The notes below the pieces were generated by a model that saw only the letters and a program-made list of their open reading frames with translations, had not been told where the DNA came from and did not search any database. A program made the translations under genes and the position numbers. DNA of 64,000 nucleotides from Oscillospiraceae bacterium. Its GTDB lineage: Bacteria; Bacillota; Clostridia; UBA1381; UBA9506. Within the stretch, counting starts at the first letter, position 1. The number at the start of each line of letters is the position of its first letter. Shown here one piece after another: positions 3,455 through 47,218 of this stretch. The DNA is taken from positions 44,802 through 108,801 of the forward strand of contig SVJJ01000003.1 of assembly GCA_015069045.1 (NCBI GenBank), given 5' to 3'.

Positions 3455-5251
3455 ATGCTGTATCCACAACTAAACCAGGCTCGCGCCTTAATTGACCTAT
3501 CCGGAATATGGGATTTTTCTCTCTGCCCGGACACAGACGAACCTCACATACAAGAAGATGACTCATTGACCAATCCAGAAACCATTGCCGTACCCGCCTC
3601 CTATAATGACCAAAAAGTGGGCGAGGCCTTTCGGGACCACTATGGTTGGGTCCTGTATCGTTGTTACTTTTCCATTCCCAAGGTTCTGTCATCTCAACGG
3701 ATTATGCTCCGTTTCGGTGCCGTTACCCATAGTGCAAAAGTCTATTTAAACCATCAATTAATATGTCAACACAAGGGAGGATTTTTACCATTTGAGGTGG
3801 AAATATCAGAAAGTCTAAAACCGGATCAGAATGTGTTGATCGTCGCTGTAGATAATCGAATTGATTACACAACCCTCCCCGTTGGAAGTGAACAAGGCGG
3901 TAACATGCTAACCGGCCTTTTGCCTGACACACCCGGCGTTACAGTTAAAAAACAAAACTATCCAAACTTCGACTTTTTTAATTATAGTGGTATTACGCGT
4001 CCCGTTATCATATACACTACACCTAAACAATACATTCGGGATATTACCTTAAATCCTTCTGTAAAAGGAACCAGCGCACAGGTAGATTATGTTATTGAAA
4101 CCGAAGGGTGTACACAGCCTACCCTGACCATTCGTGACGAAGCCGGAACCACAGTTGCTACCGCTCAAGGCTCATCCGGCTGTTTCACTATAGAAAACGT
4201 GCATCTTTGGGAACCAATGCATGCCTATTTATACCAAGCTCAAGTTTGTTGCGGACAAGATGTTTACACCGAATCCTTTGGCGTTCGCACAGTAGAAATA
4301 CAAGGTAAATCTTTTTTAATTAACGGTAAACCCTTCTATTTTAAGGGTTTCGGCAAACATGAAGATACGCCCTTTCGGGGACGCGGCTTGGATAATGTAG
4401 CGAATGTAAAGGATATTAGTTTAATGGATTGGATTGGTGCGAATTCTTTCCGTACCAGTCACTATCCTTATTCTGAAGAGATGATGCTTTTATGCGATCG
4501 AGAGGGTATTGTGGTCATAGATGAAACACCTGCCGTTGGTGTAAATTTAAATTTTGGTGCCGCTGCCGGTACAACACCACAGGACACATACAAAATTTTA
4601 CGCACCAAAGAACACCACGAAGCCGTAATCCGGGATATGATTAATCGGGATAAAAACAGGGCCTGCGTAGTCATGTGGTCAATTGCCAATGAATCCGATA
4701 CCACCACATATCCGGATAGCGCCCTTGATTACTACAAGCCTTTATATGATTTAGCTCATCAACAAGACCCTCAAAATCGCCCCGTAACTATCGTGGGCGT
4801 GCAAAACGACTATACGAAAGATAAAACCCTGCCCATAACCGACGTAATTTGCTTAAACCGCTATTACGGCTGGTATGTATATGGCGGGGACTTAAAAGCT
4901 GCAGGTCAGGCCCTTGATTTAGAGTTGCAATATTGGGAAAAATTAGGAAAACCTCTCATGTTTACAGAATATGGTGCCGATACAATCGCCGGGCTTCACG
5001 ATGCTACACCTACCATGTTTACTGAAGAATATCAGGTGGATTTTTATAAAGCCATTCACGAAATAACAGACCGCTATGACTACTTTATCGGTGAGCATGT
5101 TTGGAATTTTGCAGATTTTGCAACCATTCAAGGCATTATGCGGGTTGATGGCAATAAAAAGGGAATTTTTACCCGGGATCGGCGACCCAAATTGGCAGCT
5201 CATTATTTTAAAAAACGCTGGCATAATATTCCCAATTTTAATTACAAATAA
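3455..5251 (+). CDS. uidA: Beta-glucuronidase (GH2)
   Basis: The protein aligns by eye with E. coli GUS throughout (LSGIWDFSL, LRFGAVTHSAKVYLN, SHYPYSEEM, WSIANESD, FTEYGADT). The ATG at 3455 has an SD-like GAAAGGA. Confidence 0.9.
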   Translation: MLYPQLNQARALIDLSGIWDFSLCPDTDEPHIQEDDSLTNPETIAVPASYNDQKVGEAFRDHYGWVLYRCYFSIPKVLSSQRIMLRFGAVTHSAKVYLNHQLICQHKGGFLPFEVEISESLKPDQNVLIVAVDNRIDYTTLPVGSEQGGNMLTGLLPDTPGVTVKKQNYPNFDFFNYSGITRPVIIYTTPKQYIRDITLNPSVKGTSAQVDYVIETEGCTQPTLTIRDEAGTTVATAQGSSGCFTIENVHLWEPMHAYLYQAQVCCGQDVYTESFGVRTVEIQGKSFLINGKPFYFKGFGKHEDTPFRGRGLDNVANVKDISLMDWIGANSFRTSHYPYSEEMMLLCDREGIVVIDETPAVGVNLNFGAAAGTTPQDTYKILRTKEHHEAVIRDMINRDKNRACVVMWSIANESDTTTYPDSALDYYKPLYDLAHQQDPQNRPVTIVGVQNDYTKDKTLPITDVICLNRYYGWYVYGGDLKAAGQALDLELQYWEKLGKPLMFTEYGADTIAGLHDATPTMFTEEYQVDFYKAIHEITDRYDYFIGEHVWNFADFATIQGIMRVDGNKKGIFTRDRRPKLAAHYFKKRWHNIPNFNYK

Positions 5252-39869: not shown

Positions 39870-41012
39870 TTACAGGTAAACTTTAATTAACCTAAACACC
39901 TGCTGTGCAGTATCTCTTAGATTTTTATATGCAGTATCATAAACCATTGCTTCTTGCAACGAACAAGGAGACCTTAAAATCGGGAAAAAGGCGTCAATAC
40001 CGTGTTCATTGCAAATTACAGCATCATCTGTCACACAACCTGAAAAAGCAACGACCAACTTATGATATTTTTTTGCAAGCTTTGCAACACCAACGGGCGC
40101 TTTACCCATATATGACTGTCCATCCAACCTTCCTTCACCGGTAACAACAACATCAGCATCTTTTATGTGATTTTCTAATTCGGTTTCTTTAATCACTATG
40201 TCAATACCAGATGCAAGCGTTGCATGCAAATATGATAAAAACGCAAAACCTAATCCCCCTGCAGCACCTGTGCCCGGGGTATTCGCATCAGATTCAGGAA
40301 AAACCTTTTTTGTCAGCTTAGCATAGTTACCTAGCCAAACATCCATATCCTCTATCATCGATGGAGTCGCACCCTTTTGCGGTCCGTAAATTGCACTGCA
40401 GCCATTTTCTCCACACAGTGTATTATTCACATCACAGGCTACACAGAAGGTACATTCGTTAAGTTGTTCAGCTGCTTTATTTGTGCGAATTTCCACAATT
40501 TCTTTTAACCCTTTTGCTCCAAATGTCACCTGATTGCCTTGGTCATCCAAAAACTCAAATCCTAATGCCTGAAGCATACCTATGCCGCCATCATTGGTTG
40601 CACTGCCACCTATTCCCACAACAAACTTACGACACCCCTTTGAAATAGCATCTAAAATCAGTTCACCCACACCGAAGGTTGTTGTGTTCAAGGGATTTCT
40701 GTCCTTTTCATCTATAAGCGTAATGCCTGCAGCTGCTGACATTTCTATAATCGCCGTTTTTGTATGGGGAACGATTCCGTAATGGCTCTTTATCAAATTT
40801 CCTATGGGATCATGAACAACAACCTCAACCATTTCACCGCCTGCACCCGCAATAATAGCGTCAACGGTACCTTCACCTCCATCAGCAATTGGGGATATAA
40901 CGACCTCTGCATCTTTATATACTTCATTGGCAGCTTCCTTTATTGCCTTTCCTGCCTCAAAAGTAGAAAGGCTTCCTTTGAACGAATCAATAGCAACTAC
41001 AATTTTCTTCAT
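39870..41012 (-). CDS. glxK: Glycerate kinase
   Basis: KIVVAIDSFKGSLS...PIADGGEGTVD...GIGGSATNDGGIGMLQALG...TGEGRLDGQS is the GlxK/GarK family pattern. Confidence 0.85.
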   Translation of the reverse strand: MKKIVVAIDSFKGSLSTFEAGKAIKEAANEVYKDAEVVISPIADGGEGTVDAIIAGAGGEMVEVVVHDPIGNLIKSHYGIVPHTKTAIIEMSAAAGITLIDEKDRNPLNTTTFGVGELILDAISKGCRKFVVGIGGSATNDGGIGMLQALGFEFLDDQGNQVTFGAKGLKEIVEIRTNKAAEQLNECTFCVACDVNNTLCGENGCSAIYGPQKGATPSMIEDMDVWLGNYAKLTKKVFPESDANTPGTGAAGGLGFAFLSYLHATLASGIDIVIKETELENHIKDADVVVTGEGRLDGQSYMGKAPVGVAKLAKKYHKLVVAFSGCVTDDAVICNEHGIDAFFPILRSPCSLQEAMVYDTAYKNLRDTAQQVFRLIKVYL

Positions 41013-41025
41013 TGAATTATCTCCT

Positions 41026-41041
41026 TTCGCAAAATTCGACA
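41026..41041 (-). promoter_or_regulatory. Degenerate pair of Spo0A-box-like heptamers next to the glxK RBS
   Basis: The minus strand reads TGTCGAAttTTGCGAAAGGAG. One box is perfect and one matches 5/7. The period is 9 nt, which is weaker than in the other copies. Confidence 0.3.
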
Positions 41042-41068
41042 AAGTTCGTGTCAAGACCAGCCGAAAAA

Positions 41069-42505
41069 TTATGCATTAACCGAATAGTCTTTTTTAAATC
41101 CATGCGCTCCAAAAATTTGCCAATCACCCACACCAAGTCTTTGCATAATTGCTTTTCGTTCTTCCATACATAACGCAGGGGCAGTATCAACAGATGTCAT
41201 AAGTATAGGAGCGTACTGATTGTATTCTGCCTGCTGCGGTGTTAGTCCGTGAGTGTTTATGTAAATATCTCCCGTAATTGCAATATGATTCTGATAGTCG
41301 ATAAGAACAATTTCACCAGGAAGATGACCACCCTTACCCTCATACACTTCAAAGTGTAATTCCCCAAAATTATAAAACCCAATTTGAGTAAGGGGTTCTG
41401 TGGGATTTTCTACATCTTTCCACAAAACTGTAATTTTTTCAGGATTTGTGCATTTATATGAAGTGAGTAATTTACAAATACTGATATAAGGTCTATGCAG
41501 TGGGTTTTCCTCTCGATAACCATTTTCCTCACTATACTCATTTTTCAAACACAATGCAGTTTTATGACTTGAAATAATCTCGTCAAATATTGGCAAGAGT
41601 CCACAGTGATCAACATCAGCATGTGTTATAAGTATAGTCTTTTTAATTTCGTCATAATCCGGAATAATTCTTCTGAAGATATTTTTCATTTCTTCTTTAT
41701 AACAAGCATATCCACTATCTATAAACAGAATATTACCGTTACTTTTTATAATAATGGTATTACTTCCGCAAGGCGGTTCTACCAAGATTATTTCTGTATT
41801 TTCAGTAATTTTATGTGTGCTTATGCGTGGCGAAAAGTTCTCACCTTTAGAAGCACCGAGCAACTCAGCAAATTTGCTAATGCTATCAAATGTTCGGTAT
41901 GGAGACAACCCTTGTTCATCCAAGGTCTGCATTGCAAGGTTTACATTAACCAAAAGCCCCTTACTCACGTCAGGAGTCAGCCCCATGGTTTGCGACAACC
42001 CCATAACGTATGTATTATAAAAAATACTGTTATCATATACCTTTTCAGAACTGTTATAATCTATGACACGAACTTTGCATAATTTTTCCGCTTCAATTAA
42101 AAATTCAGATATTTTTTCTGAATCATCAACGTACAATCCCATTTTAAAATACTGATAATCTGTTCCGTTTTCCTGCGAACTTATATATGATATATTAAAG
42201 TTGAATTCGTCAATAAGTGTCAAAACATCCATAACACTTCCAGGAACATCCTTTAGGCAAAATTCAAGTAAAACAATGCTTGTTTGTGCATTGGTAGTCT
42301 GAAGATAACCTATCTTCTCCAGTTCTGCATCTGCTTTTCTCAGTTGTTCCTCTGTTCCCTCTGCATCAATAAACAAAGTATGCGAATCAACTGCCTTATT
42401 GTAACTTACGCGGGTGATGTTAATTCCCAATACCGAAAAACATTTACTTGCCTTTAAAAAAGCACCAATACGATTTGGCATTGATGTCACATATGTTTTT
42501 CTCAT
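41069..42505 (-). CDS. ACT-domain / MBL-fold metallo-hydrolase fusion protein
   Basis: The N-terminal ~170 aa contain two ACT-like units (MPNRIGAFLKASKCF..., KDVPGSVMDVLTLIDEF...). The C-terminal half carries ILITHADVDHCG, an HxDxDH variant of the MBL motif HxHxDH. The ATG at 42505 was chosen. Confidence 0.65.
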   Translation of the reverse strand: MRKTYVTSMPNRIGAFLKASKCFSVLGINITRVSYNKAVDSHTLFIDAEGTEEQLRKADAELEKIGYLQTTNAQTSIVLLEFCLKDVPGSVMDVLTLIDEFNFNISYISSQENGTDYQYFKMGLYVDDSEKISEFLIEAEKLCKVRVIDYNSSEKVYDNSIFYNTYVMGLSQTMGLTPDVSKGLLVNVNLAMQTLDEQGLSPYRTFDSISKFAELLGASKGENFSPRISTHKITENTEIILVEPPCGSNTIIIKSNGNILFIDSGYACYKEEMKNIFRRIIPDYDEIKKTILITHADVDHCGLLPIFDEIISSHKTALCLKNEYSEENGYREENPLHRPYISICKLLTSYKCTNPEKITVLWKDVENPTEPLTQIGFYNFGELHFEVYEGKGGHLPGEIVLIDYQNHIAITGDIYINTHGLTPQQAEYNQYAPILMTSVDTAPALCMEERKAIMQRLGVGDWQIFGAHGFKKDYSVNA

Positions 42506-42517
42506 AAAATTCCCCTT

Positions 42518-42534
42518 TTCGACATAATTCGGCA
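42518..42534 (-). promoter_or_regulatory. Tandem Spo0A-box-like heptamers (TGCCGAA-N3-TGTCGAA) next to the RBS of the ACT-MBL gene
   Basis: The minus strand reads TGCCGAAttaTGTCGAAAAGGGG. Both heptamers fit TGNCGAA and repeat with a 10-nt period. Confidence 0.5.
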
Positions 42535-42544
42535 AAATATCCGT

Positions 42545-42570
42545 AAAATTAGTGCACAATTTAGATGCCA
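42545..42570. repeat. Direct repeat copy R1 (TAAAATTAGTGCACAATTTAGATGCC)
   Basis: 25/26 identical to 46971-46996. Its core is related (15/19) to the ACTGTATAATCTGGATGCC core of the leader modules. It overlaps the stop codon of the four-helix-bundle gene. Confidence 0.8.
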
Positions 42571-42920
42571 CTATTATCTTGATTTTTCTTTGCGGTTGTA
42601 ATTGATGATATTAGCTTTCTGCGGATTGTTCCACACTTGTTGTTCAAATTATCATATGTCATCTTATCTATTGCATTTACTTTAAACAAAATTTCTAACC
42701 AATATTCTGTTTCGAAACACTCTTTGAGGGCAATTTCAAGTTTATGTATAAAATCCGCCCTGCTCTGTGCATGCTTTGCTTCATGTGAATTTGCACCTAT
42801 TGACGAGCAAGACCTCAAAAGTTGGTTTGTAAATACCGCTCTCCCCTTTATGTTATCACATGTTGCTGTTGTTTCAACGGTCAATTCAACTGCCAATTCC
42901 TTAATAGTCTTATCGTTCAT
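42561..42920 (-). CDS. Four-helix-bundle protein (23S rRNA intervening-sequence protein / Avd-like family)
   Basis: About 119 aa. LLRSCSSIGANSHEA....SRADFIHKLEIALKECFETEYWLEIL is the family signature. Confidence 0.8.
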   Translation of the reverse strand: MNDKTIKELAVELTVETTATCDNIKGRAVFTNQLLRSCSSIGANSHEAKHAQSRADFIHKLEIALKECFETEYWLEILFKVNAIDKMTYDNLNNKCGTIRRKLISSITTAKKNQDNSGI

Positions 42921-42935
42921 AGTAACCTCTTTCCA

Positions 42936-43116
42936 GCGATATACTCACTTCGTTCGTGCGATATATTTTCACTATGTTCAAATGCGATATAACCTCATTT
43001 CATTCGGTTGCGATATGATATAAATTCCTTTTCTCGTCCCGAAGGGACATATCGCACCTTTAGGTATATCGCTTCCGCAAGGATATATCGCAAATTCCGT
43101 CAGGAATTTATATCGC
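42936..43116. repeat. Convergent 4+4 array of the heptamer GCGATAT / ATATCGC with hairpin spacers
   Basis: GCGATAT occurs at 42936, 42958, 42984 and 43010. ATATCGC occurs at 43049, 43066, 43085 and 43110. The right-half spacers are hairpins, for example 43036-43048, 43092-43109 (7 bp) and 43117-43139 (10 bp). Confidence 0.85.
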
Positions 43117-43142
43117 TGATTTCATCTTCGATGAAATCATTA

Positions 43143-43169
43143 TATAAAGACTGTATAATCTAGATGCCA
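43143..43169. repeat. Leader-module copy D (core only)
   Basis: TATAAAGACTGTATAATCTAGATGCCA differs at one position from the 27-mer at 43740-43766 and 44139-44165. In this copy the Spo0A-box part is replaced by the GCGATAT array. Confidence 0.85.
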
Positions 43170-43210
43170 ATGTTTTTCATTTGTAATCACATCAAGTCAG
43201 AGCTAAAAAA

Positions 43211-43702
43211 TTATCTATCTTTCAGATAACTCTTTATTTCTTCAGAAGAAACTTTTACAAAATTATTTTTTAATTCTTCATTAGCAAAATGTATTTCTAA
43301 AAATTCTATATCCCTTATTTCTTCACCATTTCGATAAACTGTTATGGCTCCATTGCCGGTTGTACCTCTCCCAGCCGGATATGTACGAACATATAAAAAT
43401 TCCTTGTTAAACTGCAAATCCCTTCCGTCTGGACACCACAAATATGTTTGTTTCTCACTATATATACCGTTACAAATAACAATTGTATATTCGTTTCCAT
43501 CATTAAATGCAATATCTATCAATGGATAATCCAATTGCCCAATTGCTTCATCAATAGGAGTATCATCAAGTATCTCAATTTCTTTTTCTAATTTAAATTC
43601 GTATTCTCTTTTTGCATTCTCAAATCCCGTATGATAAAAAATACCACTCGCGACAACAGTACAAAACACACATAAAACTATTAGGATTATAATTTTTTTC
43701 AT
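43211..43702 (-). CDS. Hypothetical signal-anchored / secreted protein (163 aa)
   Basis: N-terminal hydrophobic segment MKKIIILIVLCVFCTVVASG. AGGAAG RBS. Very AT-rich. No family recognised. Confidence 0.6.
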   Translation of the reverse strand: MKKIIILIVLCVFCTVVASGIFYHTGFENAKREYEFKLEKEIEILDDTPIDEAIGQLDYPLIDIAFNDGNEYTIVICNGIYSEKQTYLWCPDGRDLQFNKEFLYVRTYPAGRGTTGNGAITVYRNGEEIRDIEFLEIHFANEELKNNFVKVSSEEIKSYLKDR

Positions 43703-43709
43703 TTAAGCA

Positions 43710-43768
43710 CTTCCTTTCGACAGCATTCGACAATCTTTATATAAAGACTGTATAATCTGGATGCCAAT
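43710..43768. promoter_or_regulatory. Leader-module copy A: RBS, tandem Spo0A boxes, palindrome, promoter-like core
   Basis: The minus strand reads TTGGCA-N18-TATATA, then TGTCGAAtgcTGTCGAA (43716-43732), then AGGAAG. The plus strand reads TCGACA-N18-TATAAT (43727-43756). The palindrome TCTTTATATAAAGA lies at 43734-43747. Confidence 0.6.
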
Positions 43769-43812
43769 CTTATTAGCATCAGGTTAGTGTCAAGTTAGAA
43801 CAAAAATTGTCA

Positions 43813-44100
43813 TCAATATTTCATAACAAAATTTTCATAAAACTCGTACTCTTCGTCGTCAGTTAAGTCACTGTCAATAAACTCTTGTAATTCCTCTTTC
43901 ATTTTTTCATATACCTCATTACAATCATCAGGACCACAAAACGCAGTATGAACCATTGCCCCATAAACTCCACAAGTGATTGCATAATATTTAGGACATT
44001 TTTCCAGAGTTATTCTACAAGATTCCATATACTCTTCATCCTTAATAACAATGCCATTCTCACTTCCGATTGCGACATTCACATATAAATCTTTCCACAT
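43813..44100 (-). CDS. Hypothetical small acidic cytoplasmic protein (95 aa)
   Basis: GGAAGGAG RBS. Acidic C-terminus (DSDLTDDEEYEFYENF). The look is immunity-protein-like, but no family was recognised. Confidence 0.55.
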   Translation of the reverse strand: MWKDLYVNVAIGSENGIVIKDEEYMESCRITLEKCPKYYAITCGVYGAMVHTAFCGPDDCNEVYEKMKEELQEFIDSDLTDDEEYEFYENFVMKY

Positions 44101-44110
44101 TGTAGTTTAC

Positions 44111-44166
44111 TCCTTCCGACAAAATTCGACATCCTTACTATAAAGACTGTATAATCTGGATGCCAT
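44111..44166. promoter_or_regulatory. Leader-module copy B
   Basis: The minus strand reads TGTCGAAtttTGTCGGA (44115-44131) next to the RBS. The 27-mer at 44139-44165 is identical to copy A, and identity to copy A is 37/41 from box 2 outwards. Confidence 0.6.
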
Positions 44167-44222
44167 TGTTTTTTATTGGCGTTAATATTAAGTATGGACT
44201 AAAAAAACAATTAGTTAGTTAG

Positions 44223-44759
44223 TTACTTACTTTCTTTTTTAAGTTTCACAAATTCAATAATTTGTATGATAAATAATACTATATGTGCTGTTCCTGCAAT
44301 TCCTGATACTATCCAAGCCACATCTGTAAAAACCTCATTACGAACTAAATTAAACAAACCATATGTAGGGCCTATATCACCACCATCTGGCAACAAAACC
44401 CAGAAAATCAAATATGTAGCAATAAAAAGATAATTTGTTATCCTTAATCCCGGAGAATCAACAAATAATTTTGATGCATATAAATTTGTCAACAAAAACA
44501 ATATTGGATGTATAATAGGTATTAACATAATTATCATACAAAACCTAATCCAGCCTATATTAAGCACCAACGATAGAGTAGCAATAACAATGCAAATTAC
44601 AGATAGAAGTAATGGTTTGTTTTTTGTTAGATTATTCTTTTTAAATAATTTAATTAATTTTGCAATTCCCCAGATAATAAGTCCAATAATTGCTATAATT
44701 TGTGCTATTCCAAAAATCGTAGAAAAAATATAATAACCCGTTTTTAATATATTCGTCAT
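44223..44759 (-). CDS. Hypothetical polytopic membrane protein (178 aa, about 5 TM)
   Basis: Alternating hydrophobic stretches and an AAAGGAG RBS. About 20% G+C by hand count of one 60-nt line. Confidence 0.55.
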   Translation of the reverse strand: MTNILKTGYYIFSTIFGIAQIIAIIGLIIWGIAKLIKLFKKNNLTKNKPLLLSVICIVIATLSLVLNIGWIRFCMIIMLIPIIHPILFLLTNLYASKLFVDSPGLRITNYLFIATYLIFWVLLPDGGDIGPTYGLFNLVRNEVFTDVAWIVSGIAGTAHIVLFIIQIIEFVKLKKESK

Positions 44760-44771
44760 ACTCTATCTCCT

Positions 44772-44788
44772 TTCGCCAAATTTCGACA
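44772..44788 (-). promoter_or_regulatory. Leader-module copy C (Spo0A-box pair only)
   Basis: The minus strand reads TGTCGAAattTGGCGAAAGGAG with a 10-nt period. The GATGCC core is absent from this copy. Confidence 0.5.
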
Positions 44789-44833
44789 ATCTTACTATGA
44801 TTTTGTCAAGTTAGGGACAAAAAAATTTATTCT

Positions 44834-45043
44834 TTATACAGCAACTTGTCTTGCTTCAATATACAAATCTATATCGTTGATAATATAGTTTGTTCCGGTG
44901 GTATGCAATGCACCATAACATTCCATAATATATTCACACACATTATATTTTTGAAACAACTGTATAACTTCTTTTCCTTTTAGATTTTTTGCAGTCCTAT
45001 ATATCTCAATGCAAAAAATCAAAAATCTTCCCTCTTTGCTCAT
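44834..45043 (-). CDS. DUF3791-like small protein
   Basis: FLIFCIEIYR...GKEVIQLF.KY.V.EYI..CYGALHTTG..YI..DIDLYI matches my memory of DUF3791 proteins. Confidence 0.6.
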   Translation of the reverse strand: MSKEGRFLIFCIEIYRTAKNLKGKEVIQLFQKYNVCEYIMECYGALHTTGTNYIINDIDLYIEARQVAV

Positions 45044-45076
45044 AATATCCCTACTTTAGTTATCTCTATGATTATT

Positions 45077-45946
45077 CTAGATATTTTCAATTTCACTTTC
45101 TTCAATATCTTTCAATGTAATTCCGTCTTTATTTCTCCACTCTGTTCTACCGTTCGCATTTCTTCCCATGACAATAGCCGCAGCTAAAGATGGGCTGGTA
45201 AAAACATAATCTTTCACAAAAGTTTCACTCACAACTGTACCACTTTCAATTAACTTGTTTCTAAGTTTAATTAGGTATTCTGACATACTAGGCGTAGTAG
45301 ACATCGCAATTTTAGAATTTCTCAATACTGCAAAGCCATCAGATGTAACAAATCCTAATGCTTCTGCACCACGAGCTGCTTTAATATGAAAAATTTCTTT
45401 TTCATCATTTAATCCATCTTCTGCATTTGCTGTAAGAACATCAAAAGATTTATAACCCAATGTATTAACTAACAACCTTGCATTTTCAATAAACTCGTCA
45501 AGCATAGCAACATCGTATTCAGAAATAGAGGGACAGGTTGGTATTGTACTATTTATAACATCTGTTCTATTTGCATCTTTTGCCAATTGATAAAATTTAT
45601 TTTCAAGGAATTTCACATGAGCTTTGTTCAATAAATTGTCTTTACTGATTACTGCAATACAATCATTCCAATACTCTTTATCTTTTAAATGTTGCTTTAA
45701 TCGTGTAACAATTCTTTCTGCCTCACCAATATAAATCGTGTCATTTCCATCCGTGCTCTTACCAAATAAGAAATACACGCCGGTATTATCTGCATCCTCT
45801 CTCTGTGCAAATTCAGAAATATCACTACGAGAAATTTTATATACTCTGCCATTCCAATTTGAAAGTTCACACATAATTCTTCCATTTGGATTTCCCTCAA
45901 ATATGTACATCTGAATTGTTTTATCAAAATTTTTCATATAACTCAT
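45077..45946 (-). CDS. GIY-YIG nuclease-domain protein with a DUF4357-like C-terminus
   Basis: GVYFLFG-N12-IYIGEAERIVTRLKQH (nt 45713-45781). C-terminus FTSPSLAAAIVMGRNANGRTEWRNKDGITL. The ATG overlaps the upstream stop (ATGA at 45943-45946). Confidence 0.7.
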   Translation of the reverse strand: MSYMKNFDKTIQMYIFEGNPNGRIMCELSNWNGRVYKISRSDISEFAQREDADNTGVYFLFGKSTDGNDTIYIGEAERIVTRLKQHLKDKEYWNDCIAVISKDNLLNKAHVKFLENKFYQLAKDANRTDVINSTIPTCPSISEYDVAMLDEFIENARLLVNTLGYKSFDVLTANAEDGLNDEKEIFHIKAARGAEALGFVTSDGFAVLRNSKIAMSTTPSMSEYLIKLRNKLIESGTVVSETFVKDYVFTSPSLAAAIVMGRNANGRTEWRNKDGITLKDIEESEIENI

Positions 45947-46869
45947 TCCCCTTTATGATTCTTTTCGCTTACAGAAAGCACAAAATCCGCCATAGTCATC
46001 GCACTATTAACAAACAAGCGAGCATGATGCTCTGCTATGTTAATTCTTTTTGTACCAACACCATGAGAATCGCTACCTTTATTGCGCATTTCAGAAATTG
46101 CTGTTAGAATCTTTTCTAACCCAGAAAGCAATCCGTTTATTCTCTTGTCGATATCTTTGTTTTGGTGCATATTATATAGTGTTTTTACTTGGTTATATAA
46201 CTTTCCGACATCTCCGCTCTCGGATGGTTGTTCCCCTTTTTTCTCTATTACATAACAAAAAACCTCTTCAAGTAGTGTTCTAGATTTAGTTATTGCGCTA
46301 TCAAAAAAACCATCAGTTACATCCTTCATAGCACGATCCGACAATCCTACTATGTATGATCTATCTATTTTTTTAACGGATGGTGCAACAATTTTTACCG
46401 TCTCTCCTTTTTTATCTATAACAAAACGGCCATCAACAATTACAAGTTCAAAACCACTAAAATACAACACTCCATTTATTTGATCAATTATTGTTGAAAT
46501 AATTCTTTTGTGGGCATAATCAATATCTTTTGGAGTGCATCCTCTAAGTTTATTTGCAAACTGTTCTTTAGAAAACAAAAACGACAACAAGTCAGAAACT
46601 CTATTATTATCAATACAAAACTTCAGCAAATTATCAAGATATTCCCAACGGCTTTTTGCCCCACCACTCCACTTGTAAGCAACCGGCAGTCCAAAATTCG
46701 TTGATATTTCGCATAAATCCGGTCCATTTAAGTATGGAAGAGAAATCTTAATAATATCGTCAATGGATTCAACTTTAAACTCACCGAAATCGGTATCGCC
46801 ATCCAAAATCGCTATTATTGTTTTTGTTCTTAACAACCCAAAATTGTTATCAATTGTTTTCATTATCAA
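45943..46869 (-). CDS. AbiJ-like protein with a C-terminal Abi_C/HEPN domain
   Basis: C-terminal ...ISEMRNKGSDSHGVG...AEHHARLFVNSA contains an Rx6H motif (R262-H269, nt 46063-46086). The N-terminal SLPYLNGPDLCEISTNFG...WSGGAKSRWEYL resembles AbiJ N-terminal domains. Confidence 0.65.
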   Translation of the reverse strand: MIMKTIDNNFGLLRTKTIIAILDGDTDFGEFKVESIDDIIKISLPYLNGPDLCEISTNFGLPVAYKWSGGAKSRWEYLDNLLKFCIDNNRVSDLLSFLFSKEQFANKLRGCTPKDIDYAHKRIISTIIDQINGVLYFSGFELVIVDGRFVIDKKGETVKIVAPSVKKIDRSYIVGLSDRAMKDVTDGFFDSAITKSRTLLEEVFCYVIEKKGEQPSESGDVGKLYNQVKTLYNMHQNKDIDKRINGLLSGLEKILTAISEMRNKGSDSHGVGTKRINIAEHHARLFVNSAMTMADFVLSVSEKNHKGE

Positions 46870-46970
46870 TCCTTCTTTTTGTTTTTCAATATTATTTCAC
46901 ATCAAAATATTTATGATTATCTCAAAGGAGCTCCATGCGTTTTAATTTTTGTCCCTTGTATATCAAACTT

Positions 46971-46996
46971 TAAAATCAGTGCACAATTTAGATGCC
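46971..46996. repeat. Direct repeat copy R5 (TAAAATCAGTGCACAATTTAGATGCC)
   Basis: 25/26 identical to 42545-42570, about 4.4 kb away in the same orientation. Confidence 0.8.
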
Positions 46997-47018
46997 GAGA
47001 AATCATTTTACCAGGAGC

Positions 47019-47125
47019 AAAAATCTTTGCTCGCAAGGAGATTTTTGCGACGCCGTCAATTGACACAGTGCTCGAAAGAGCACAAAGGAGCGTTAGCTCC
47101 TAAGAATTTTATGAAATAAAATTCT
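47019..47125. other. Cluster of four consecutive stem-loops plus a 10-bp palindrome
   Basis: GCAAAAATCT-N12-AGATTTTTGC (47019-47050); GTCAATTGAC palindrome; GTGCTC-gaaa-GAGCAC; GGAGC-gtta-GCTCC; GAATTTTA-tgaaa-TAAAATTC. Confidence 0.6.
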
Positions 47126-47218
47126 GTATGTGTCAATTATATCATATCCTCTTTCCTTTATCAATAAAAAGAATTTCTATTAACTATATTTATATTTTTT
47201 TGATATACCTCTCCGTAT

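Follow-up and report, generated by a model that had tools for sequence, protein, structure and literature searches.

AbiJ is a lactococcal abortive infection (Abi) protein that works as a single-gene system and carries an HEPN domain; phage escape mutations map to single-stranded DNA-annealing proteins (PMC13064643). As represented by abi-859 of Lactococcus lactis pND859 and by its entries in DefenseFinder and PADLOC, it is one polypeptide of ~280-310 amino acids (aa) with a C-terminal HEPN Rx4-6H motif. HEPN/Abi genes are commonly linked to restriction-modification (R-M) genes and have been proposed to act as a second layer of defence, with AbiJ N-terminal domains proposed as a built-in inhibitor or sensor (PMC3710099). 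PDC-S14, a single-gene entry of PADLOC-DB v2, is among 145 untested candidates that were defined by embedding in R-M, BREX or DISARM operons (bioRxiv 10.1101/2024.01.29.577857). Here we analyse two adjacent minus-strand genes, open reading frame (ORF) 1 and ORF2, in a 64,000-nucleotide (nt) stretch of an Oscillospiraceae genome (contig SVJJ01000003.1, positions 44,802 to 108,801; hereafter, the window). An earlier note, made from the sequence alone, had proposed that the two form an undescribed two-gene defence system. We found no support for this proposal. Both genes are full-length members of families already catalogued as single-gene entries, AbiJ and PDC-S14, and their adjacency is confined to a narrow lineage and was recently assembled. 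The locus is likely a small defence island in which two independent single-gene immune modules share one promoter, together with an orphan DUF3791 gene. In terms of novelty, ORF1 and ORF2 are further members of known families.

ORF1 matches the PADLOC AbiJ profile (PDLC02347) over its full length (1.4e-80, residues 5-302 against profile positions 3-280 of 281) and has the same single-chain build as the lactococcal protein. Residues 42-304 also share 28% identity (E 2e-24) with an 'abortive infection family protein' encoded on a 7.4-kb Lactococcus plasmid, where the gene adjoins hsdS. The motif R-NKGSDS-H had been read in the earlier note as an HEPN signature, and this reading is borne out: the motif falls within a Pfam Abi_C match (Table 1), and R260, N261, K262, S264, D265, S266 and H267 show no variation among 31 homologues (70-96% identity). 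The proposed AbiJ-type N-terminal domain can be upheld only in part. The Pfam AbiJ_NTD models gave no match to the N-terminal 165 residues, even at E up to 10, but this region nonetheless lies within the PADLOC AbiJ profile match. In the AlphaFold2 model of ORF1 (mean predicted local distance difference test score, pLDDT, 66.9), residues ~1-165 form an alpha+beta domain, with pLDDT of ~80-90 over residues 10-140. NCBIfam returned no match to ORF1, and Foldseek aligned the model weakly with HEPN or four-helix-bundle structures (2rld, 1o3u and 2hsb), none of them significantly. ORF1 differs from AbiJ of Lactococcus in having an N-terminus outside the Pfam models and in being chromosomal, in gut Clostridia. 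Whereas most AbiJ relatives trail an R-M operon, ORF1 stands at the 5' end of its cassette.

ORF2 shares with PDC-S14 both its full length (PDLC04925, 4.3e-107, residues 3-284 against profile positions 12-296 of 301; second model PDLC04923, 2.3e-93) and its architecture, in which an N-terminal beta region is followed by a GIY-YIG core, a helical linker and a C-terminal DUF4357 domain. The family is widespread, with thousands of clusters at 90% identity. The DUF4357-like tail recognised earlier is confirmed by Pfam and carries the conserved motif ...FTSPSxAA..v.GR.ANG..EW.... For the GIY-YIG core, the Pfam match (2.8e-4 to 7.5e-4, 20.2-21.6 bits) falls below the gathering score of 22.6, but all 37 homologues compared keep the catalytic residues Y55, Y69, R79, H83, E112 and N129. 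The AlphaFold2 model (mean pLDDT 79.9) orders this region as beta53-60, beta66-73, alpha76-84, beta90-98 and alpha105-122, and this beta-beta-alpha-beta-alpha order fits a GIY-YIG core. There is also a weak NCBIfam match to the UvrC N-terminus (6e-4), and hhalign to an approximate sequence of the I-TevI N-terminus aligned the YIG-R-H residues (E 1.7e-4, 24 columns). The UvrC match, the invariant residues, the modelled core and this approximate I-TevI alignment together corroborate the prediction of a GIY-YIG nuclease, and plasmid homologues of ORF2 are annotated as 'GIY-YIG nuclease family protein'. Foldseek found no GIY-YIG structure for the ORF2 model, and its matches were irrelevant. In Foldseek searches of the PDB, neither model had a match at E up to 1e-3, and family profiles of both proteins matched no PDB sequence at E up to 1. 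The use of whole-chain, multi-domain queries probably diluted the Foldseek signal.

The tail of ORF2 is a probable reader of DNA or of modified bases. DUF4357 has been reported fused to GmrSD, GIY-YIG, T5orf172 and McrB, and these partners resemble those listed for RAMA, a proposed reader of N6-methyladenine that is fused to URI, T5orf172, ParB, HNH and McrB (PMC4738411). Pfam RAMA gave no match to the tail even at E up to 10, so the idea that DUF4357 corresponds to RAMA draws solely on shared fusion partners. One PDC-S57 model matches the tail weakly (2.5e-10). ORF2 follows the same logic of nuclease plus reader domain as RAMA nucleases and the Type IV enzymes with DUF4357 (GmrSD and McrB); unlike these, it lacks an NTPase, and its catalytic domain is GIY-YIG rather than HNH or ParB.

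We surveyed gene neighbourhoods from both sides, with AbiJ seeds and with nuclease seeds. The AbiJ side comprised 96 loci, 80 of which (45-96% identity) came from a scan of one genome per species; 89 of the 96 were informative, with at least 900 nt of downstream sequence. The nuclease side comprised 16 loci from an exact-protein look-up and 80 metagenome loci (65-98% identity), and 78 of these 96 had the at least 950 nt of upstream sequence that made them informative. The two genes are not conserved neighbours across diverged lineages. A GIY-YIG/DUF4357 gene lies downstream of AbiJ in four of the 89 informative AbiJ loci (L030, L190, L191 and L192), one of which, L190, is a copy of the window locus, and in none of the 78 informative nuclease loci does the upstream sequence contain AbiJ or a match to the HEPN or AbiJ N-terminal models derived from this family. 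Narrow family hidden Markov models (full length, GIY core, DUF4357, HEPN and AbiJ N-terminus) searched against all ORFs of all loci revealed no hidden co-occurrence. On viral contigs, the five AbiJ loci and three nuclease loci likewise showed no coincidence (0/8). For both genes there are dozens of loci in which a close homologue (~70-80% identity) is present and its partner is absent.

The four paired loci form a single shallow clade in which AbiJ is at least 88% identical in protein and 86-97% in DNA. Within this clade the pair is a co-inherited cassette, because it travels as a 1.9-kb unit into four flanking contexts. Homology of the window to L030, for example, is a clean block of 1.9 kb (46994-45078). 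Since the contexts differ and the spacing between the genes stays constant, both genes move jointly within the clade. The nuclease has also moved by itself. L110 encodes a nuclease with 98% protein and 93% DNA identity to ORF2 and has no AbiJ; its homology to the window is limited to the ORF itself (45937-45077). In L191, DNA identity is discordant between the two genes, at 86% for AbiJ and 93% for the nuclease. Therefore, the nuclease has been exchanged independently of AbiJ. Directly upstream of the L110 nuclease is an unrelated gene for a 312-aa protein (3739-4677) that matches nothing in Pfam or PADLOC, possibly an uncharacterised defence-island gene.

Elsewhere, each family has usual neighbours of its own. 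Immediately upstream of other AbiJ genes we found mostly restriction components: HsdR (12 loci), HsdS (9 loci) and AlwI/HNH restriction endonucleases (10 loci), as well as ResIII, Eco57I-type methyltransferases and LlaJI. On small mobilizable elements, the AbiJ homologues P0007 (79% identical) and P0059 (71%) come directly after type II R-M genes and lack the nuclease. In six loci on a mobilizable element (L001-L005 and L031; e.g., L001 5166-5948), the gene between an AlwI-type endonuclease and an AbiJ of 79% identity encodes a predicted membrane or coiled-coil protein of 260 aa without a Pfam family. Large proteins that consist of many treble-clef zinc-ribbon repeats (WHPTKNG...CPxC) adjoin AbiJ homologues in L055 (5924-8212), L057 (5939-8227) and L052 (1913-2611).

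The commonest gene upstream of the nuclease, in 38 loci, encodes an XRE-type helix-turn-helix (HTH) protein of 150-190 aa, and its stop overlaps the nuclease start. This protein weakly matches PADLOC Control_protein (3.4e-8), which represents R-M controller proteins, and might serve PDC-S14 as its controller or its antitoxin. Examples are found in L115-L131 and L022-L029 (e.g., L117 4461-4991 and L022 5521-5979), with a conserved C-terminal ...EEYDKWRYNYP.... An HTH-cupin gene precedes the nuclease in 10 loci, and many nuclease copies have no same-strand neighbour. Close nuclease homologues adjoin SLFN-like helicases, SMODS/SLATT genes, a PycTM/cyclase (Pycsar-like) pair and type I or III R-M genes. 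Plasmids of Actinomycetota, Pseudomonadota and Bacteroidota carry distant homologues (31-45% identity), either close to a DUF262-HNH (GmrSD-like) gene, directly after hsdS, as in Acinetobacter, or between hsdS and hsdR, as in Rhodococcus, where the gene ends overlap. Embedding of this kind in type I R-M operons is the criterion that defines PDC families; the window copy instead follows AbiJ.

The arrangement of the two genes in the window is operon-like. Both minus-strand ORFs described in the earlier note are present, in frames that can be opened as long as it had stated (308 and 289 aa), but shorter products of 306 and 286 aa are more likely. The longer ORF1 frame (45943..46869) opens with TTG. 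The ATG at 46863 has AGAAGGA just ahead of it, and the resulting 306-aa product has exactly the sequence of database protein P0001, which is named 'abortive phage infection protein [Ruminococcaceae bacterium]'; this ATG is most likely the start. With it, the HEPN motif runs from R260 to H267, rather than from R262 to H269 as counted from the TTG. The longer ORF2 frame (45077..45946) opens in an ATGA at 45943-45946, on which the earlier note had based translational coupling through a 4-nt overlap. The ATGA is there, but judging from sequence comparison it is incidental and probably not the ORF2 start. The start most likely lies at the ATG at 45937, 5 nt past the ORF1 stop, because every homologue opens with M-x-F-x-KTIQ, gene callers predict 286 aa in four related loci, nucleotide homology with L110 opens precisely at 45937, a Shine-Dalgarno sequence (AAAGGGG) sits within the final ORF1 codons, and the L191 junction, GAATAAGACATATG, has a TAA stop and no ATGA. 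The 5-nt spacing is identical in L030, L190, L191 and L192. We found no terminator-like site between ORF1, ORF2 and ORF3, the DUF3791 gene, and the two main genes are tightly linked because the gap is only 5 nt and no such site separates them.

ORF3 had been overlooked in the earlier note, whose domain calls and defence context agree with our analysis. Its membership of the cassette is optional: a DUF3791 gene trails the pair in two of the four contexts, the window copy and L192 (1932-2141; 73% nt identity), and is absent after the pair in L030 and L191. ORF3 matches PADLOC PDC-M13C (5.3e-34) and PDC-M13A, and in this it resembles one component of the multi-gene candidate PDC-M13; no neighbouring ORF matches a PADLOC model for any other PDC-M13 component.

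Could the pair nevertheless be an interdependent system? In one version ORF2 would detect or cleave phage DNA and pass a signal on to AbiJ; in another AbiJ would guard the nuclease, and the HEPN RNase would be set free once a phage inhibits the nuclease. Several observations favour such a system and weigh against two independent modules. The pair keeps its 5-nt junction and internal Shine-Dalgarno sequence through four different flanking contexts, no terminator-like site divides it, and movement as a 1.9-kb unit is what a functional unit would also show. Moreover, in L047 (3357-6601) and L048 (116-1716), an Eco57I-type N6A methylase, an AbiJ homologue (64% identical) and a T5orf172 protein are encoded in this order on one strand, a few nucleotides apart, and the T5orf172 protein, a PDC-S57 member (2.9e-62), lies 6-8 nt downstream of AbiJ. 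Adjacency of AbiJ and a URI-type nuclease has therefore arisen at least twice. In addition, the structural models gave no significant PDB match, and the literature searched contained no experimental validation of PDC-S14. RNase and DNase activity, sensing and layering are inferred, and modification dependence purely so. However, joint travel within one shallow clade is weak evidence for functional dependence. Co-occurrence goes no further than that clade, the near-identical L110 nuclease manages without AbiJ, the two genes have diverged discordantly in L191, and AbiJ is already known to be a single-gene system. The PDC-S57 protein belongs to a different nuclease family from ORF2, albeit of the same URI/GIY-YIG superfamily, and the simplest reading of L047 is an AbiJ gene embedded within an R-M pair, whose nuclease more plausibly partners the upstream methylase. 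A DUF4357 tail in the L047 T5orf172 protein was considered and dropped (hhalign against the ORF2 family, E 0.34). We thus regard an interdependent two-gene system as unlikely.

Two further explanations concern one gene each. GIY-YIG homing endonucleases are well known, and ORF2 could be a selfish, free-standing gene of this kind that inserted 3' of AbiJ and has no role in defence. The ORF-precise homology boundaries in L110, the many unrelated genes found upstream of the nuclease and the ORF2 homologues in three phage records speak for this. Yet the C-terminus of ORF2 is DUF4357, a domain reported to be fused to the restriction proteins GmrSD and McrB, and not a homing-type DNA-binding module. 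Type I R-M operons and defence islands contain homologues of ORF2, the controller-like XRE-HTH gene often precedes members of the family, and we saw no intron, intein or conserved target-site flanks. This explanation is accordingly quite improbable. The remaining one is toxin-antitoxin pairing, in which the AbiJ HEPN toxin is neutralised by ORF2 or by the small DUF3791 protein. HEPN toxins often come with a cognate neutraliser, and the DUF3791 gene is small, co-transcribed and recurrent in L192. ORF1 also has an HEPN Rx4-6H effector in common with the HEPN-MNT systems of type II/VII. In ORF1, however, a large N-terminal domain accompanies the HEPN domain on one chain, and in AbiJ such N-terminal domains have been proposed as the built-in inhibitor and sensor (PMC3710099); family scans identified no MNT or nucleotidyltransferase in ORF2, ORF3 or the other island ORFs; the earlier note was right that no MNT, methylase or NTPase is nearby. 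AbiJ homologues at 60-80% identity have neither neighbour, and two of the four contexts lack DUF3791. It is very improbable that the locus is a toxin-antitoxin system.

We therefore return to two independent modules and to how they might work. By analogy with other HEPN Abi proteins, the AbiJ N-terminal domain would detect a phage component and, as long as there is no infection, restrain the C-terminal HEPN RNase. Once infection occurs, this Rx6H RNase would degrade RNA and abort the infection, and a separate antitoxin would be unnecessary. ORF2 most likely acts on invading DNA as a stand-alone restriction-like enzyme, with GIY-YIG as the endonuclease and DUF4357 as the DNA reader. Because no methyltransferase is linked to it in the island, ORF2 may be modification-dependent (Type IV-like), and a DNase that is modification-dependent or otherwise self-limited is the most economical proposal. 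The two activities could be layered, with restriction acting first and HEPN suicide as a backup, a layering familiar from HEPN/Abi genes on R-M operons; neither protein would require the other. The R-M-linked HEPN/Abi genes of Anantharaman et al. 2013 (PMC3710099) similarly combine an HEPN Abi protein and a DNA-targeting nuclease in one operon, but in the window the partner has no methyltransferase and stands alone as a GIY-YIG/DUF4357 protein, and the two genes come in the opposite order.

The cassette lies in a low-GC island that is flanked by a glycerate-kinase gene on one side and by spoIIGA-sigE on the other (Table 1). The earlier note had put the G+C content of the genes at ~30% by hand count, and we measured 0.34 for ORF1 and 0.33 for ORF2, compared with 0.42 for the window. 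Elsewhere in the island, genes at 41069-42920 (-) specify a protein of 500 aa that by eye resembles a metallo-beta-lactamase in its HxHxDH-like motif (THADVDHCG) and has a faint ACT match, and a four-helix-bundle protein of TIGR02436 (23S_rRNA_IVP, 1e-22). Three small ORFs (163, 95 and 178 aa) have no family match. The sole result of an Rfam scan of the island was a sub-threshold match to Gut-1 RNA (RF01706) over the full model length (29 bits, gathering score 50, E 0.014). It lies at 43024-43118 (-), with the four-helix-bundle gene and the 163-aa ORF on either side.

Nearly all genes of the low-GC island are preceded by a minus-strand intergenic repeat of ~60-110 nt. The repeat has the consensus ..ACTTGAC..TTGGCATCYAGATTATACAGTCTTTATA..AGATTGTCGAAnnnTGTCGAAAGGAG-ATG, which in sequence looks like a duplicated promoter plus leader (TTGGCA-N17-TTATAT). 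The two core motifs occur nowhere else in the window and in none of the shuffled controls. The consensus fold was unconvincing as an RNA structure (-2.5 kcal/mol). Pieces of the repeat also border the AbiJ-nuclease cassette in L030 and L191, and the L030 homology opens at one repeat copy (46994). The repeat may be a recombination substrate for cassette shuffling.

Table 1. Coordinates of the genes, domains and sites of the AbiJ/PDC-S14 locus, numbered within the window.
Feature	Position	Strand	Details
ORF1, AbiJ-family gene	45943..46863	-	306 aa from ATG at 46863 (most likely start)
Abi_C (HEPN) domain of ORF1	45976..46203	-	Residues 221-296; Pfam PF14355 1.7e-19, 70.2 bits against a cut-off of 24
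HEPN Rx6H motif R-NKGSDS-H	46063..46086	-	R260..H267 in 306-aa numbering; read directly from the sequence
ORF1-ORF2 junction	45938..45960	-	AAAGGGG in last ORF1 codons, then TGA stop, 5 nt, ATG
ORF2, PDC-S14-family gene	45077..45937	-	286 aa from ATG at 45937 (most likely start)
GIY-YIG catalytic core of ORF2 (predicted)	45533..45790	-	Residues ~50-135: GVY55...Y69IGE...R79..H83...E112...N129
DUF4357 domain of ORF2	45113..45262	-	Pfam PF14267 1.6e-19, 70-72 bits against a cut-off of 38.4
ORF3, orphan DUF3791 gene	44834..45043	-	69 aa, 33 nt 3' of ORF2; Pfam DUF3791 1.5e-22
Promoter-like site 5' of ORF1	47136..47164	-	TTGATA-17-TATAAT with extended TG; consensus scan alone, 11/12 matches
Low-GC island	41100..47200		~6 kb, G+C 0.33 against 0.42 for the whole window; carries the cassette
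Intergenic repeat, fuller copies	43112-43210, 43700-43812, 44098-44206	-	
Intergenic repeat, partial copies	44757-44800, 41010-41057, 42513-42569, 46971-46996	-	

What does the locus mean for these two families? The adjacency is of an ordinary kind for a defence island. There is a slim chance that AbiJ is functionally wired to a URI-type (GIY-YIG/T5orf172) DNase in this clade and, independently, in L047/L048. If so, the pair would form a compact restrict-then-abort unit, with the HEPN RNase governed by the state of the DNase, such as its inhibition by an anti-restriction protein of the phage or its engagement with modified DNA, and guard-type coupling of DNA-level and RNA-level effectors would fit into ~600 residues. 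With its native promoter, the 1.9-kb natural construct has modest value as a first test case for PDC-S14, and the same construct could tell additive from synergistic protection by a GIY-YIG/DUF4357 nuclease and AbiJ. Should DUF4357 prove to read modified bases, PDC-S14 would represent a Type IV-like enzyme in minimal form. The locus illustrates the shuffling of single-gene immune cassettes in gut Clostridia, with boundaries that are precise to the ORF.

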